A stretch of DNA of 51,612 nucleotides from Spizellomyces punctatus DAOM BR117 (taxonomy: Eukaryota), in assembly GCA_000182565.2 (NCBI GenBank), contig KQ257450.1. One strand, written 5' to 3'. Under the pieces are notes generated by a model that saw only the letters and a program-made list of their open reading frames with translations, was not told the origin of the DNA and did not search any database. Shown here piece by piece: positions 2,805-37,357 of this stretch. The position numbers and the translations under genes are program-made. The number at the start of each line of letters is the position of its first letter. Position 1 is the stretch's first letter.

Positions 2805-3208
2805 ATCATAGCCACATATTTGAGCTCCATTGACTTTCCGGTGCTTGGCACTAACGAACACATCGTGTGCATCAATGTAGCAGCATTATAGCTGTCTATG
2901 TAGAAATAAGCAACATAACCACTTGCAATTGTCAAAAGGTGTGCAATGCCATTGCGACCTTCGTAATACCTCCTCAAGAAAATGGGTTGTATTACTGACG
3001 GAACGGCTTTATCTTAGTGTGGAGGTGATTGAAAATGGCACTAGGACCCTTTATTATCCGGATTAATCCGGTTAATCATATCGCATAATCAGCACCCCCT
3101 CTATTGCTCAAAACGGTGTGGCATGTATTGTAATGTTCGCCAAACTGTGGTGTGGCATGCATGTAATGTTTTTTTTTTTAAACTGCAGTGAGGCGCATGC
3201 CAAAGGTC

Positions 3209-3215
3209 TATAAAA
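3209..3215 (+). promoter_or_regulatory. Canonical TATA box
   Basis: TATAAAA followed by GGGGG and a pyrimidine-rich tract, about 95 nt upstream of the ATG at 3305. Confidence 0.55.
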
Positions 3216-3239
3216 GGGGGGCCTTTTCCCTCTTTCCTC

Positions 3240-3752
3240 TTTACCCATCCTCGACTCGCAAAACATCTGCGCAACGCTCACGCAGCACTCTCAAGTCCAT
3301 CATCATGAGAATGCCGCTCTGGTGCCGAGGACCTTGCCCTCCCGACAACAACAAACATAACCCCTTGCAAACGCTGCTACTACTATACTGCTACGATCGC
3401 AGGTATGCATTATCTTTGTATTTTCCCACGCGTATTCCCAGTCTAATTCCCATTACCTTAGTATCTGAACATCCTCCGACTAAAGAATTTCGGAAGGGCT
3501 TAGTAGGATTTCTCTCGTGTGGTGGGCTTAGTTACCCGGTTAGAACCAACCGTAATGTATTGCATGTGTAATTGGGCCTAGTGGTAGTTAGTGGAATCGT
3601 GCTGCTTTGCACGTACCCCAGTTCAACCCAGGCTGGAACCTGTAGCGAGTTAGGATAGGGGTGGGACTCGTTTGCAGGATAGGTTATGAAGGGTTGGACA
3701 GGCTGGCTAATTGTAAATTCGAACCGGCTGTAGTGGGTTGGAGGGAGCATTT
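3240..3752 (+). ncRNA. Candidate spliced, structured non-coding RNA or small-ORF transcript (34 aa, MRMPLWCRGPCPPDNNKHNPLQTLLLLYCYDRSI); ends approximate
   Basis: TATA box upstream. Canonical 59-nt intron at 3403-3461 (GTATGC...CTAAT...TTAG). Several long complementary segments with G-U pairs on the + strand. Confidence 0.35.
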
Positions 3753-3874: not shown

Positions 3875-3946
3875 AGCACCATAGCGCAGAGGAAGCGCGC
3901 AGGGCTCATAACCCTGAGGCCCCTGGATCGAAACCAGGTGGTGCTA
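3875..3946 (+). tRNA. Initiator tRNA-Met (CAT)
   Basis: 72-nt cloverleaf with acceptor stem AGCACCA/TGGTGCT (A1-U72), anticodon arm CAGGG-CTCATAA-CCCTG (three G-C pairs) and T-loop ATCGAAA (A54). These are eukaryotic initiator hallmarks. Confidence 0.97.
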
Positions 3947-3969
3947 CTAGTTGGATATTATCGTGGCAA

Positions 3970-4161: not shown

Positions 4162-5392
4162 CTAGAACTGGTTCTTATTCTGCTTATGGAAGTTGTGATT
4201 CTGGTTGGATTTCTTCGAGTTATTGTTGTTGAAAGCTATGGAGCTGCTGGTTAATATCCGTATGAGACCATGCCAGATATGCACTAGGACATACCATTTG
4301 TGTTTGACAGGTTCTTGTGGTCCTTTTTGATTGAGTTATCCTGGTTCTTCTTGTGCAGCACGTCATTGTTGTTATTCGCTCTGAGATGATCCTTTTTGAG
4401 ATTGTTCTGGTTGAAGTTGTTCTGGTTGTTGTTATTCTGGAAAGCCGAATTCTTTTGATCCTTCTTATTCTGGTTGTTGATGATTTGAGGGCCCCACCAT
4501 CCGCCAGCAACTTCAACCTGTTCATTTTCGACCTCGGCAGCTTCAGCATCGTAACCGTAACCGCCGTAGGGATAGCCGTAGCCACCGTAACCACTAAACT
4601 TCTTGCCTTTACCGCCGTAGCCATAGCCATAACCGCCAGCAGCTTCAACCTCCTCGTTCTCTAGATCCGCAGCTTCAACATCGAACTTCTTGCCGTAACC
4701 GTAACCGCCGTAGGGATAGCCGTAACCACCGTAACCACCATAACCACCAAATTTCTTGCCTTTGCCGCCGTAACCCAAGCCATAACCGCCATAACCGCCC
4801 GCAACTTCTACCTCCTCTTCTTTGACATCCGCAGCTTCAACTTCGAATTTCTTGTTTTGCTTGTTGAAATGATTATTGTTGTTAACATTTTTCTTATTGC
4901 TGTTCTGGTTGTTTGCATTTTGATTGTTTTTATTCTGTAATGACGGGGAATCATGCGATAAATTAAATTCTGGCCCCAAACGATGAAAATCACAGCGTAC
5001 ACACCAAATGATCTTTTTTGATTGAGTTATTCTGGTTCTTCTTGTGCAGTACATTGTTGTTGTTGTTCGCTCTGAGATGATCCTTTTTGAGATTGTTCTG
5101 GTTGAAGTTGTTCTGGTTGTTGTTGTTCAGGAAAGCTGAATTTTTTTGATCCTTCTTATTCTGGTTGTTGATGATTTGAGGCCCCCACCATCCGCCAGCC
5201 GCTTGGACCTCTTCCTCTACAGCCTTAAACGATGAATGAAGGATGATGAGCAAGACGACAGGATGGGCCAAGGGACAGCCGCTGTAATCGACGGTGCAAG
5301 CATACCAAGTCTTGGGGCGCCGGAGCCGCGAGAGTAGGCGCAAAGAACAAGGCTGGAGCAATGCCGGCAGCAAGAAGATAGATGGTTTTCAT
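4162..5392 (-). CDS. Secreted repetitive protein with Asn/Gln/Lys-rich and Gly/Tyr-rich modules separated by acidic spacers
   Basis: Exons 5392-5306, 5223-5005, 4934-4295 and 4235-4162 splice in frame. Signal peptide MKTIYLLAAGIAPALFFAPTLA. TATAAAA on the minus strand at 5502-5496. Confidence 0.85.
4318..5199. repeat. Intragenic direct repeat of about 190 bp (4318-4508 and 5009-5199) flanking GGY-coding tandem repeats (about 4551-4810)
   Basis: Two near-identical copies encode AGGWWGPQIINNQNKKDQKNSAF...SIKKDH. Repeated (ccgtaa/ccatag) units encode GYG. Confidence 0.9.
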
Positions 5393-6024
5393 GTTGGCGG
5401 ATAAGCTGATGTATAGTAGGCTTTTGAATGGTAAGCGTAGAGCAAGTTGATGACAACGGATAACTGGGTAGATGGGGCCCAACATGACGATCCCATTTTA
5501 TAGACAAAATTTGTATTCACTGTAGAGGAAGAACTCAGAGGATGGGAACTGGTAGGGATTGGGAAGATAGAGAGGTTTCAAACTTAAAAATTCAAAAAGG
5601 TTAACCTTAAAAGTCATCACCAGTCTTCAGTATCATACATTCATCCCTGAGACATTGAAATTGCGAGTGTTCATGCCGCCTCCACTGCAGTGAAGTTCAA
5701 CGACGCTTTCACCTGACCAACGATAATGGCTTGGGAGGTTGTTTCTAGCGGATCACCCCTTTTTGAGCCTGACGAGTAGCGCTTACAGCTACATAGTCAT
5801 CATCTGAACATGTCGATGGAACCTTGGCATGTCGCTCATAAGGTTTACGCAAGGACACGATAGACCCTCTGACGTACACATCCTTTCTGGTGCCAACGTT
5901 TTCTTGTTTTCCATGAATACTCTCAACCTGGATTTACCCATTTCGAGCAAGACGTTGAAATAGACAGCACTATGAGATGGGCTACAAGGGAGCTATCTGG
6001 TGCGTCTACGCTACAGGCTGGCTA

Positions 6025-8139: not shown

Positions 8140-8870
8140 CTACTCTTCATTTGGCTCTTCATTGTGATCATCTTCGACGGGACGCTCTTCTAGCTCCATG
8201 TCTCGACGGATTTTCTTTGGAGGCACCGGTCGCAAAGCGGCTCCACCCAGGTTCAGCACAAACGGAGGCGTTGGTGTTGGTGTTGGTGAAGCTGTGGTGC
8301 TGCTTACTTTTGCGGAGCTTGTTGTTGCAACAACAATCTTCTCTGATGTCCCAAACGTTGCCGTTCCAACCACTCCATAAGCCTTGCTCATATCCAACAC
8401 ATCATAGCAGACTGCAACTTGGACCCAACCCCCTGGTTGAACTGCGTTGTTTACGCCATTGATTGGTGTGGCTCGTAGATTGCCTCCTTGATTCTCTTGC
8501 CAAATATCCGCGACTGCGTTGGAGATCCACCAGACCTGACTATTGGTGAGGATGATATCGAGAGTCCAAATTGTGGATGGATACCAATAGGCAGCACTGG
8601 GATTGTGGGTGATGTTAAATGTTCCGCAAAAAATTCCGTTCCTGGCGTCTTGAAAGGTAAAGGCCATGGGAACTGTCACGGTAGATAACGGAGTAATGTT
8701 GGCGGGGAGGGATGTATCTATCGGGGCGAGGTCAGCAATGGCCGTCTCAGCGTAAAATCTTTCTATTAGCATTGGTACATACCACCGAGAACTTGTCTAG
8801 CAATTAAGCTTCTTGCTTGGCTGCTCCCCACTAGTAGAATAGCGGCGGCGACAAAGAACCACAATGCCAT
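8140..8870 (-). CDS. Secreted protein with a CBM2-like carbohydrate-binding module and a Ser/Thr/Pro linker
   Basis: Signal peptide MALWFFVAAAILLVGSSQA and one GT-AG intron (about 8782-8718). A domain of about 100 aa is bracketed by Cys (IFCG...AVCY) and has spaced Trp residues and NNAVQPGG. It is followed by a PTPTP linker and a KKIRR plus acidic tail. Confidence 0.65.
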
Positions 8871-11020
8871 TATAGCTCTCGAGCTGCGAATTCGTGTAGA
8901 TGTAATTATGGAGAGTGCTGGTGTCTGGCAAGGCTCGCGAGGAGAATGTCCGATTTGAATAGATTTCGTTCAGACACGAGAGTGCTAGAATTCCAAAAAC
9001 CCTTAAGCATGATCAAACTTGAGGGTTTGACCCATCAGCAATCGCAAAATTAATGTACCATTCCTCTTTCGTCGCCTTTAACATGGCTTCCTTGGCCTCA
9101 TCAGGGTCATTGACCAAGTGGTTTTCTTGGCCTCCATCCACACGAGGGTGTCGCCATCTGCCGTCTTCAAGATCGCAGATAATGGTGTCATGGATGGAGG
9201 TGATGTAGACGGCTCGGCGATACTGGTATCTTTTGGAGCCAGGGTTCGGACAAGGTCATCCCATTAGCGCATATACTGAGCCCCATCCATCCAAACACGT
9301 TGCCTTTTCCATTGGAGACAGCTAGTGGAATAGTCAGGCCTATTTCTAGGTGGGGCGAGTGCGACAGAGGCAACTTACTAGCCCCATATAGCCCCGTACA
9401 GTTCACCAAACGGCTCTTCATCTACAGCCGGTTCATGCAAGACGACGTCAAGCACTTGTGCGAAGGTGCTACCTTGACTTATCATCTGCAAGGATCCACA
9501 TTAGAGATGGGCTCGCACCATGACACACGAATGTATTTATCATCTCTAAGCGTGATAAGAAATCGCAAAAATTCGGAAAAGACATGGACTTCATCGATGA
9601 AGGTTTCTGGGGTATTTCAGCAGAAGACTATCCAGCTACAAAGGCACAAAATCGTGGCCATATACAAATGTGAACTATGTTCATTTCACCTTTCATTCAT
9701 ATTCTCATCATAGTGAGACTGCCAAACCACTATCACCATTTTCTTATCTCTCTGTCCTTCTTTCTTTACCAGTGTCGGGAATGTCTCTCTGGGACCTTGG
9801 GTCAAGATAGTAGCAAAGGAGTTGCATGCAGAAAGCAAAATATGGAACGATGGTAGATGGCCTTTGTCTTCAAATTTTGAATGGATCAGATACCTAGCTA
9901 GAAAGCGTAACCCAACAGACTTACAGCCGTGATCGATAGTTTTATGAACCTGTTTGGTGGGGTTGATAATTTTGCCAAGCTTTGATCAATCCAAAATTCC
10001 AACACAATCGCTGTAAGTTCTCACCAAGCTAATACTAATGCATGAAGGTACCCATATAACATGAAAGCTAGGTGACCTGATTGGTACTAGAGGAATGGGT
10101 TACGCTGTGATAGTCCTCTACTCGATAGAGAGATGGCATTTATACTACCTGTAACCTGAAACATTGTTAGCATGCAATGGAAAAGCGTGCCAGACTAAAT
10201 ACTTTTGCGCGCATTGTTAGTATGGAACTTTGGATACTGTAGCCATCGATATCAAGAATTCACAAAGTGACAGTATGGCTTCACACAAGAGCAAACATTG
10301 ACCGGTGACATGACGGCTCTTGATACCTGTCCTGGGCACGACAATGAACTCATTATCCCTCACGGCAAAAGGCAAAATGTATTGTAATACAAGACTTGGA
10401 TCTATTTACTCTAGCATTTCTCCAACCTTCATGGAGCTGTAGCCGTTTGCAGTGTTTCTGAATTTCCAGGAAATATTAGATATGGCGATGGCGGAGTGTC
10501 GCCTAGCTTTGCTGGATGTAGCCACGCTTTTGCACGTTTGTAGCTAGTATTCTCGATTTTGCTTAAATACATCCGTGATCACAGAAACACTTTCAAAATA
10601 GTGCAAAGAGGCCAACGCCATGCGACGATCAGCATCACTGAAAGAAGAAGAGAGACTAAAGCCTTGAATTCAAATATTGTCTGCTCATGACCATGCAGGC
10701 CACTCCCAAGAATGCACCAACACTTGTCTGTACTTTGGCCCCACGTCAACAGCTGCGTCCAGCCCAGCTTGAAAACGAGATGCTGACAGCAGAAGGAATC
10801 ACGTGCGTCCCTGGGGGCCACAAAAGCGGCCAAACTGTGCCAGCTGTGCCACATGCGCGTTCATTCTAAAATTTGGAATCGAAGGGAGACAAATTCTGCG
10901 GCCCTGCGGAAAAGGAGCTTGTCGTCTGTGGGGGAAAGGTTGTTCCGGGGAGGCATTCCCAATCTGCTCGCCTTCGTCTTTCATCCCCGACTCTCAGTGT
11001 TACTGACAGCAGGAAGAAAG

Positions 11021-12709
11021 ATGCTCGCACGAATCCTATCAACCGCGTTTGTCCTTCTTCCGCTGGTCACAGCGCAGACTCCAATTAATATTCCTGCTCC
11101 CGTTGAAGGGGATCCCGCAACACAGCCTGCCAACGATCCTACATATGCTTGCCCGGCGACTTGTGTGCCTCCCGCTTGCGTTTGCGCATCCACAAAGATT
11201 CCTGGTGGTTTGAGCGTAGAGCAGACGCCCATGTTTGTTACTCTCACTGCAGACGATGCCATTCAAGATCCGACCTACGAGCCCTTTAGCCAGGTTTTGA
11301 ACTCTACGGTGAATCCAAATGGATGTAATCTTCCCTTTACGTACTTTGTCAGTACCGCCTGGACCAATTTCTGGCTGATTACGAGGGCATATAATCTGGG
11401 ACATGAAATCGGTGCTCATACTATCAATCACCCTGGTAATGCGTATAGCGCTTTGACGTCCAAAAAAGTACCCTCACTGATAAGTTTCCAGATCTCACAA
11501 CTGTGTCAGCCACAGTGCGTGACCAAGAGATCCAAGGTTCTGCGCAAGCGGTCATGACCTATGGCGGGATTCCGAAGAGCGACCTTGCAGGGTTCCGTCA
11601 TCCGTTCTTGGCATTCAACAAAGACTCATTTGACTCTGTTGCCAAGGCTGGGTTCAAGTATGATTCGTCAGTTACCCTAGATCCTTTGACCCAGCCTTAT
11701 TGGCCACACACGCTGGATTACGGCTTCGCCTACTACCCGCAACCATGCATCAAATGCCCGTAAGTCTAGGCTGTCCCTTAACAGCAGGGGATCAAAACTC
11801 ATGAAAACTGTTTTCTCTCTGTCAAGTTCCGGGCCTTCTATGCAATACAAGGGAATGTGGGAGATCCCAATGTACAATTTGCTCACTAATGACTCAAAGC
11901 TCTGGTCTAGTATGGATCCTATCATCAATCCCCAGGTGAGTGTGAGACCACTAGACAGGCTATCGGAAATTGAAAACATCTAATTTACATCTTATTCCCT
12001 TCAGCTTAACGACTATGACGTGGCATTGTCCAATATCAAGGCCACTTTCCAAGTGCACTACAAAACGAAACTTCCCTTCGGCCTCTACCAGCATTTAGCG
12101 CAACTGGTAGCGTGGGGACCAGAGGTGGAGGTCAAAAAGGTTCAACTCCTCAAAGATTTTGTGGCGTGGACTCAGAAAGAGTTCAAAGACGTTTGGTATG
12201 TCACCAATCAACAGTTGATCTCATGGATCCAAAAGCCAGTGCCTGCCGATCAGATGCGAACGTTTCTCCCGTGTCGTCCACCCGCAGTGGACAAAGCGAA
12301 TAAAGAGATCTGTGACGGTATTGATAACGATGGCGATGGAATCATTGACAATGGCGTAGTCGAAACCTGTCAAGTGACCGAGGAAGTTAGTTTCCAAAGT
12401 TGCTACGGATGCCCGACACTCGTTCCCAATATCACACAACCGGTTCCACCGCAGAAGGGAAATGCTACAAGGAAGCCTGCGCCCGATGCAGCGTGTCCAA
12501 ATGCTGGGACTTGGGATCCCATTGCGGGCGCTTGCATCACTTTAACAAGGCCACAGGTCAAAATTCCTGATAGCAATGCGTCTGGGTCAAAACCTAGCGG
12601 TACCAATGGAGATCAGTCGAAGGGAAGTGGGACAGTGGCAGGTGCCAAGGTAGCCAAGACGTCTGTATTTGGTGCGACCCTCCTCTTAGTGGCAGTTTTG
12701 AGTGCCTAG
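11021..12709 (+). CDS. Secreted, probably GPI-anchored polysaccharide (chitin) deacetylase, CE4 family, animal-CDA-like subgroup
   Basis: Signal peptide; Cys-rich CPATCVPPACVCAS; motifs PMFVTLTADD, HEIGAHTINH, GFRHPFL, YDSS, WPHTLDYG, WEIPM and DVWYVTNQQLISW; three GT-AG introns; hydrophobic C-terminus after an S/G-rich stalk. Confidence 0.9.
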
Positions 12710-32601: not shown

Positions 32602-33560
32602 NNNNNNNNNNNNNNNNNNNNNNNNNNNNNNNNNNNNNNNNNNNNNNNNNNNNNNNNNNNNNNNNNNNNNNNNNNNNNNNNNNNNNNNNNNNNNNNNNNN
32701 NNNNNNNNNNNNNNNNNNNNNNNNNNNNNNNNNNNNNNNNNNNNNNNNNNNNNNNNNNNNNNNNNNNNNNNNNNNNNNNNNNNNNNNNNNNNNNNNNNNN
32801 NNNNNNNNNNNNNNNNNNNNNNNNNNNNNNNNNNNNNNNNNNNNNNNNNNNNNNNNNNNNNNNNNNNNNNNNNNNNNNNNNNNNNNNNNNNNNNNNNNNN
32901 NNNNNNNNNNNNNNNNNNNNNNNNNNNNNNNNNNNNNNNNNNNNNNNNNNNNNNNNNNNNNNNNNNNNNNNNNNNNNNNNNNNNNNNNNNNNNNNNNNNN
33001 NNNNNNNNNNNNNNNNNNNNNNNNNNNNNNNNNNNNNNNNNNNNNNNNNNNNNNNNNNNNNNNNNNNNNNNNNNNNNNNNNNNNNNNNNNNNNNNNNNNN
33101 NNNNNNNNNNNNNNNNNNNNNNNNNNNNNNNNNNNNNNNNNNNNNNNNNNNNNNNNNNNNNNNNNNNNNNNNNNNNNNNNNNNNNNNNNNNNNNNNNNNN
33201 NNNNNNNNNNNNNNNNNNNNNNNNNNNNNNNNNNNNNNNNNNNNNNNNNNNNNNNNNNNNNNNNNNNNNNNNNNNNNNNNNNNNNNNNNNNNNNNNNNNN
33301 NNNNNNNNNNNNNNNNNNNNNNNNNNNNNNNNNNNNNNNNNNNNNNNNNNNNNNNNNNNNNNNNNNNNNNNNNNNNNNNNNNNNNNNNNNNNNNNNNNNN
33401 NNNNNNNNNNNNNNNNNNNNNNNNNNNNNNNNNNNNNNNNNNNNNNNNNNNNNNNNNNNNNNNNNNNNNNNNNNNNNNNNNNNNNNNNNNNNNNNNNNNN
33501 NNNNNNNNNNNNNNNNNNNNNNNNNNNNNNNNNNNNNNNNNNNNNNNNNNNNNNNNNNNN
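32602..33560. other. Assembly gap (N run)
   Basis: Run of N. Confidence 1.
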
Positions 33561-36538: not shown

Positions 36539-37357
36539 GTATGACAAAAATCATTGGAAAAAAGAACGTAAAGTAGGTTGGAAACAGGGACATATCACGG
36601 GGGGACTGTCTGCCGATTCTCATGTACTCGACGGAAGAGGGTGTCAGTAGAGATAATATGATGTTAGTCGATTCATTCATCAAGTAGACACAGTTTGAAA
36701 TCTTGTATTCTTTGACTGTGGTCCAATATCGGAGCTGCTGCCCAACCAGGCAACGTCGGCTTATGAACGAGCGCCTATTGGATAAAATAAATACAGGCAG
36801 GACAAAATGGAATCAAGAAAGAGAGGGCGTTTTGTTGAGTGGTCTCTGCCAGGTTCGAACTGGCGACCTTCAGTGTGTTAGACTGATGTGATAACCAACT
36901 ACACCAAGAGACCTCTGTGAGGATGTGTGCGCATGGGGATATTTATAGACTAGGCGATGGAATGTGCAGTTCATCCAAAAGTTCGACCAGATTCTCCTCG
37001 TTGTGTCTTTTACTTACCGAAAGGTGCCCAACATGGCAGTGCTGAACGCATGGTGCATGTAAATAAACGATGAAAAAGTTAAATGGCTGATCATTAAAAT
37101 GACACCAGGCGCCTTTTAGTGACACAAGAATTTTGGCCAGATTTTGCTGCTAATGTCGTGTCTGCATTCTGAACGCTCGGCAACAATTATACTGCGACTT
37201 GTTTAGCTAGAGGCTGCCAAATTGTCAAGTTACGAAAACCCCCCTTAGCGTGCCTAGAACGTTTGAGTGTTGGGAAGGGTGTTGCACTCGCGAACAAACC
37301 TGGAAGGGATTCACAGAGCCGACCGCTCACCACTCCGAGAGATTCTGTCTTTGAAGA

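Follow-up and report, generated by a model that had tools for sequence, protein, structure and literature searches.

Acidic V-E-x-A-G-G spacers and two kinds of cationic core in a secreted repeat protein family of Spizellomyces punctatus

What becomes of a secreted protein in which acidic spacers alternate with cationic cores of two unrelated kinds: is it cut, at which residues, and what would the pieces do? The question is raised by a gene in a stretch of 51,612 nucleotides from Spizellomyces punctatus DAOM BR117 (contig KQ257450.1), hereafter the window. A first-pass annotation had described its product, the window protein, as a secreted, modular chain with two core types under one spacer type, a description that the analysis supports. 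Chytrid adhesion proteins are listed as an open question in one source (PMC10512372), and another describes what repeat precursors do in early-diverging fungi as unknown (PMC6339444). The window protein and its single paralogue would supply named chytrid adhesion candidates with predicted termini. Cleavage behind A-G-G or at Lys-Lys, if true, would extend the processing rules of fungi and reveal what escapes surveys that look for dibasic sites; an uncut wall protein would be a lineage-restricted, low-complexity protein of modest interest.

Gene model and modular layout

The window gene lies on the minus strand, with its start codon at 5392 and its stop codon at 4164-4162. As predicted from the sequence, splicing joins four exons that encode 339 amino acids with one terminal stop. 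A TATA box (5496..5502, minus strand) stands about 104 nt upstream of the start codon and is the clearest block conserved with the upstream region of the paralogue. Exon 1 (5306..5392) encodes the predicted signal peptide (aa 1-22, 5392-5327) and the beginning of spacer S1, exon 2 (5005..5223) the end of S1 (to 5191) and the first 62 residues of module A, exon 3 (4295..4934) the end of A followed by S2, B, S3, B', S4 and most of A', and exon 4 (4162..4235) the last part of A' and the stop codon.

The three predicted introns are all GT-AG. For intron 2 (4935..5004, 70 nt, GTGTGT...CAG), 29 options were tried, of which 9 were in-frame, and only the one drawn yields a 91-residue module A with KK at 12/35/50/58/76/90. 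Likewise, among 45 options for intron 3 (4236..4294, 59 nt, GTATGT...TAG), only the one drawn yields a 92-residue module A' with KK at 76; both choices agree with the KK register of the paralogue's A modules. Intron 1 (5224..5305, 82 nt, GTATGC...AAG) was placed by taking the GTATGC donor and the nearest in-frame acceptor out of 18 options, and since 6 of these are in-frame, the length of S1 is less certain. Intron positions are not the same among the four A modules of the two genes.

The predicted signal peptide is the sole strongly hydrophobic segment of the protein (Kyte-Doolittle 11-mer 2.17, against a later maximum of 0.63), and in both paralogues T-L-A precedes the cut predicted by hydropathy and the -3/-1 rule. 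Comparison of the module copies gave pN 0.05, pS 0.37 and dN/dS 0.09 for A versus A' (Fisher p 7e-7), and dN/dS 0.28 for spacer plus B versus spacer plus B' (p 0.025). This selection, read from pN/pS, rules out an artefact or a non-coding repeat: the window gene is a real secreted-protein gene under purifying selection.

Behind the signal peptide come S1, A, S2, B, S3, B', S4 and A', all on the minus strand, giving the layout A-B-B'-A'. Spacer S1 covers aa 23-40. Module A (4848..5190, aa 41-131) has 91 residues, spans intron 2, consists of Asn and Gln to 49%, carries a net charge of +13 and follows a 23-residue period. After its terminal KK comes S2 (4794..4847, aa 132-149, net -6, ending VEVAGG), and then module B (4686..4793, aa 150-185), 36 residues with 78% Gly and Tyr and a net charge of +5. 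S3 (4632..4685, aa 186-203, net -7, ending VEAAGG) again follows KK and leads to module B' (4554..4631, aa 204-229), which has 26 residues, 77% Gly and Tyr and a net charge of +3. S4 (4500..4553, aa 230-247, net -6, ending VEVAGG) has no basic residue before it, and module A' (4165..4499, aa 248-339, 92 residues, 45% Asn and Gln, net +10) spans intron 3 and keeps the KK register of A. The spacers of the window protein have 18 residues each and net charges of -4 to -7. The layout, the four AGG-ended spacers, the two KK-F-[ED] junctions and the starts of A and B were thus all found as first described.

The 23-residue period of the A modules gave a lag-23 count of 18, against 15 for the 95th percentile of the best lag in shuffles. 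Both proteins are devoid of Cys, with 12 and 9 Ser plus Thr per whole chain, and their AlphaFold2 models are of low confidence (pLDDT 57.5 and 43.9), without a confident fold. The 69 Asn of the window protein form 3 N-glycosylation sequons; the paralogue has 75 Asn and 0 sequons.

A paralogue and the marks at module boundaries

One further locus turned up when the genome was searched; it lies on contig C11 (L008:4491-6170), where an inferred seven-exon model would encode 428 amino acids laid out A-B-B-B-A'. Three protein searches of the genome gave these two loci only, with no third family member. A genome scan with the spacer-end pattern returned 17 matches, as many as the control; 7 fall within the two genes, and the remaining 10 have unrelated contexts. 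Synonymous sites are saturated between the paralogues (pS 0.97 and 0.81), and the first 59-61 residues of their A modules are 68-69% identical. The first annotation had proposed that the spacers and KK positions of a homologue should be conserved while module number varies, and this is what the one homologue found displays: the module number differs between the two genes, and both the V-E-x-A-G-G spacer end and the A modules' KK register persist.

All four A modules measure 91-92 residues. Three of them share KK at positions 12, 35, 50, 58 and 76; the fourth has its three middle KK displaced by one residue and differs in the outer ones. Between the first A modules of the paralogues, identity reaches 11/12 for KK residues and 29/36 for Asn, and falls to 10/18 for hydrophobic and 8/25 for other polar residues.

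The spacer end is the most regular boundary mark. It reads V-[EQ]-[VAT]-A-G-G in 8 of the 9 spacers of both genes, the paralogue's first spacer ending in A-G. Its residues V, A, G and G never vary among the eight AGG spacers, yet they are written with 4, 3, 3 and 3 codons respectively; that this end is kept despite varied codons and saturated pS argues for a processed precursor. The other end is also regular, as the internal spacers begin [FYL]-[DE]-[VA]-[DE]-A-A in 7/7. What follows the nine spacers varies: Trp in 4, Tyr in 2 and KK-F in 3. This one kind of spacer precedes cores of two unrelated kinds, and it also comes immediately behind the signal peptide.

The role of KK is a different matter. 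The window protein contains 14 KK against 4.0 in shuffles and the paralogue 22 against 6.5, and none of 10000 shuffles reached either count. KR, RK and RR number 0 in both the 339 and the 428 residues, which include 2 and 1 Arg in total. KK had been taken as the mark of the cassette boundary; however, far above chance as it is, it precedes only 3 of the 7 internal spacers, the other four coming after a G/Y block without a dibasic site. A dibasic site follows the spacer in 3 of 9 cases and is absent in 6; the paralogue has KK directly between spacer and B core in 3/3. In the window protein 12 of the 14 KK stand away from spacer starts, and most KK lie inside cores. KK is therefore selected, yet it is not the cassette boundary mark.

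Acidic residues cluster right behind KK: the four A modules together contain 18 acidic residues, and 13 of these have KK immediately before them, with hypergeometric p values of 1e-3 to 1e-4 per module that are not four independent proofs, since the KK-D statistic reflects one repeated motif. Cuts at KK-D alone would release pieces of 23, 23; 23, 23; 23, 23; and 24, 23 residues from the four A modules. An acidic residue occupies P1', P2' or P4' of 8 of the 14 KK runs in the window protein and 10 of the 22 in the paralogue. All 12 KK runs in B blocks are preceded by Gly, and Gly before a dibasic site has the form of an amidation signal. The X-Ala/X-Pro dipeptides of the Ste13 type, which follow the dibasic site in alpha-factor-type pheromones, number 0 at the three KK-led spacers, and 2-3 after the signal peptide and at the four Tyr-led spacers.

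Cut or uncut: weighing the readings

The genome contains two kexin-type loci (C5 and C23), each with S8 and P domains and a C-terminal hydrophobic segment. Over its catalytic domain the C5 kexin aligns with furin and Kex2 and keeps the acidic pocket motifs, whose residues in those enzymes are linked to a preference for Arg. One DPP IV/Ste13-type gene, three tyrosinase matches and one lysyl oxidase gene (C21:68644-68862, with an apparent signal peptide) were also found; none of the kexin, DPP IV, tyrosinase or lysyl oxidase genes lies near the window gene or its paralogue. Yeasts are described as having one kexin gene (PMC2515848), and the two found here possibly differ in specificity. Kex2 sites are generally KR or RR, and KK to a lesser degree (PMC6339444), while killer-toxin sites are reported to depend on a P1 Arg (PMC13404059). 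Acidic residues at P1', P2' and P4' were over-represented at cleaved Kex2 sites according to Bader 2008, in whose test one third of the predicted substrates remained uncut (PMC2515848).

We lean, with some reserve, towards internal processing of the window protein, mainly because a single conserved spacer type is shared by two unrelated cores and recurs directly behind the signal peptide; there it stands where a pro-segment would, which again speaks for a processed precursor. For cleavage count the acidic residues after KK together with the two kexin genes. Against cleavage by kexin count the absence of KR, RK and RR, the sparse dibasic sites at spacers and the lack of a Ste13 ladder after the KK-led spacers. 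The odds given to this and to the competing readings are judgement, not calculation.

The fuller reading that we rank first, though at somewhat less than an even chance, is that of a polyprotein whose cationic fragments, some N-rich and some G/Y/K-rich, would act as coat or adhesive once cut apart. The window protein would be a secreted prepro-polyprotein of repeated cassettes, each an acidic spacer plus a cationic core. Within the secretory pathway, the spacers would neutralise cores that are cationic and prone to aggregate. Some of the KK sites, KK-D and KK-F/L-D/E being the likeliest, would be cleaved by a kexin, and a second, putative protease would strip the spacers up to V-E-x-A-G-G. The freed pieces, either N-rich peptides of about 21-23 residues or the entire 91-residue unit, plus G/Y/K-rich peptides, may then assemble extracellularly into a coat, wall or adhesive, possibly with cross-links through Tyr or Lys. 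Such a protein would work like Rep1 of Ustilago maydis, described as the Kex2-cut source of water-repellent surface proteins (PMC7329392), rather than in the manner of a cyclised RiPP or a pheromone. If the chain is processed, a material role is favoured over signalling by the Rep1 precedent and by cores that are long, variable, of low complexity, Cys-free and without a confident fold.

The proposed analogy with Kex2-processed repeat proteins survives in part. Like KEPs, the window protein has a signal peptide, internal repeats, many dibasic sites and a kexin in the genome; unlike them, it uses KK only, not every one of its cassettes is flanked by dibasic sites and its acidic V-E-x-A-G-G spacer is conserved. 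An Umemura-type rule (at least 3 repeats of 8-100 residues between KR, KK, RK or RR), applied as an approximation at 60% identity rather than as the published code, leaves out the window protein (13 fragments, largest group 2) and takes in the paralogue (16 fragments, groups of 4 and 3); the surveys accept KK. These report two repeat types in 77 of 1193 KEPs, and 178 chytrid KEPs in 19 strains (PMC7329392, PMC6339444). We thus file the family under secreted repeat precursors, not as textbook KEPs; its new features are a dibasic code confined to KK, the V-E-x-A-G-G spacer as a portable unit and the N-rich module of fixed length.

A possible, if less probable, reading is that only the signal peptide is removed and that the uncut chain is a block polyampholyte, whose acidic and basic blocks co-condense, with G/Y and N-rich segments as stickers and KK and Tyr providing cross-links or register. 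It would account for dibasic sites that are without Arg throughout, for KK spread at fixed spacing over all cores, and for an A module that measures 91-92 residues in 4/4 copies with a 23-residue period. Charge blocks alternate and sum to near neutral: the spacers total -23 in the window protein and -40 in the paralogue, and the mature chains +8 and +6. This balance is known from two proteins only and suits the processed, the uncut and the diffusible-peptide readings alike. The genome's tyrosinase and lysyl oxidase genes would provide for cross-linking, and Lys-rich secreted proteins such as these two are candidate lysyl oxidase substrates; in the set of 24 fungi treated by Grau-Bove 2015, LOX is reported from one chytrid and one monoblepharid only (PMC4448552). 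A model exists in the glue of the sandcastle worm, in which polybasic, Tyr-bearing and polyacidic partners among Pc1-Pc5 balance charge and are cross-linked by tyrosinase curing (PMC11277488). Module B is likewise rich in Gly, Tyr and Lys, whereas both charges here reside on one chain, and the likeness is one of description. The Pc1 repeat may closely resemble module B, a likeness that a literature search did not bear out. An uncut chain leaves two features unexplained: the V-E-x-A-G-G end conserved in spacers that precede either core type and in the position behind the signal peptide, and the acidic residue after KK; moreover, a disordered chain with 14 KK would encounter two kexins in the secretory pathway.

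More doubtful, and nearest to what the first annotation had in mind, is the view that the B cores are diffusible G/Y-rich cationic antimicrobial or signal peptides, kept inactive behind acidic pro-segments as in animal multi-copy precursors. The B cores, with 26-45 residues, net charges of +3 to +11 and acidic spacers in front, have a suitable build, and the paralogue's KK between spacer and B core, like the Gly before every B-block KK run, would suit release. However, B blocks are 40-50% Gly, which makes Gly before KK cheap, and an amidating monooxygenase domain (PF01082) gave no match in the genome, where the control was silent too. The B copies, moreover, vary in sequence and in length, both inside each gene and from one gene to the other, as receptor ligands do not, and the 91-residue N-rich unit makes up more than half of the window protein.

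The sole outside matches, eight proteins (P0004-P0011) that we presume to be of animal origin, are themselves multi-copy G/Y precursors of like design. Acidic spacers alternate in them with G/Y-rich cores, and Gly precedes the dibasic site. In contrast to the window protein, each contains 2-12 KR, placed on both sides of the core in P0005-P0009, and the N-rich module is absent, as are AGG and KKD (0/8). These KR-bearing proteins are clearly convertase precursors, which counts against kexin cleavage of a chain with KK only. Homology was rejected at a best pairwise alignment E of 2.0, and we regard these precursors as analogues in design, not homologues. The KR-flanked G/Y cores of P0005-P0009 end in W-G before KR and resemble amidated peptide precursors.

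Returning to processing into structural pieces, a more specific version is a long shot at present: an undescribed eukaryotic secretory code in which a dedicated protease acting after V-E-x-A-G-G, in convergence with bacterial double-glycine leaders, and a Lys-Lys-tolerant kexin acting on the opposite side would together yield a two-component chytrid glue or cyst coat. Its components would be cross-linkable peptides rich in G/Y/K and self-stacking N-rich peptides of 23 residues, and the number of modules would fix their ratio.

Least probable by far, and largely refuted by register and missing enzymes, is a RiPP precursor with modified, Tyr-rich cores behind Nif11/NHLP-like double-glycine leaders or of the ustiloxin type: the acidic stretch and Ala-Gly-Gly end do recall the N11P (TIGR03798) and NHLP leaders and the N11P motif ELSDEELEAVAGG, in which Leu at -12 and -7 and Val/Leu at -4 precede Gly-Gly (Haft 2010, PMC2887384), but the register of the eight AGG spacers is off by one (Val at -6 in 8/8 and Val/Leu at -11 in 7/8, against Leu at -7 in 0/8 and at -12 in 1/8, with Val at -4 in 2/8), several spacers share one chain behind a signal peptide, Cys is absent and Ser/Thr are few, NCBIfam matches at E <=10 appeared in 0/3 sequences, and the genome's sole C39 match is a Guanylate_cyc_2-family gene rather than a C39-ABC transporter (the C39 control was positive in 7/14 genomes). 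The Nif11 likeness first suggested was accordingly rejected as homology on the shifted hydrophobic register, and the AGG resemblance is best read as convergent or due to chance. DUF3328/UstYa matches were absent from the 41 window ORFs, as the first annotation had stated for the vicinity, from the 4 ORFs of the paralogue locus and from the genome as a whole, where the control was silent. The neighbours, unrelated and different at the two loci, also speak against a RiPP.

Relatives and gene surroundings

Outside the genome, exon 3 retrieved 1 match among 8000 scored, at 11% coverage, from 5.8 billion proteins, and the same single match from 1.84 billion representatives. The A-module alignment found 0/8000 among longer proteins, and the two-paralogue alignment 7/8000, all G/Y precursors with KR. 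As these protein searches returned neither the window protein nor its paralogue, which the libraries may lack or filter, they are weak negatives for outside homologues. Against metagenome, prokaryote and viral contigs, 0/597, 0/602 and 0/599 pattern matches of the A-module alignment were confirmed, and a KKDH...KKNQ DNA pattern hit 22 metagenomic loci, 0 of them in the N-rich frame. The ESM Atlas gave no usable match, and Pfam nothing under E 0.09 for five exon sequences. A literature search with five motifs from both proteins gave unrelated matches only and no description of the two-gene family; a motif search of the KEP survey supplements gave nothing, although the rows shown of the Umemura table carry accessions and either gene may be a row there.

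The 41 window ORFs chosen for scanning gave matches to the MORN, F-box/cyclin-D1-binding, polysaccharide deacetylase, lysine methyltransferase, C1-THF synthase, PPR, kinase, DDHD, Ras and ankyrin families, and the paralogue is surrounded by a pyridine nucleotide-disulphide oxidoreductase, a Cx9C protein and a HECT ligase. A gene cluster was rejected, the neighbours being unrelated, none common to both loci and none a tailoring gene. Two of them, 3-7 kb upstream of the window gene, are possibly wall-related: a probably secreted protein at 8140-9421 (minus strand), two ORFs of which were scanned and matched no Pfam family, and, at 10787-12709 (plus strand), a polysaccharide deacetylase whose C-terminus is hydrophobic.

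Elsewhere in the window, a run of N (32602-33560) produces a dip in GC and long false ORFs at that place. tRNA genes are found at 3875-3947 (tRNA-Met(CAT), plus strand) and 36839-36913 (tRNA-Val(AAC), minus strand). About 600 nt past the 3' end of the window gene, a TATA-led short frame with W-C-R-G-P occupies 3182-3571 (plus strand), and repeated GTGGCATG-like motifs (3110-3200, plus strand) stand directly upstream of the TATA box at 3209.
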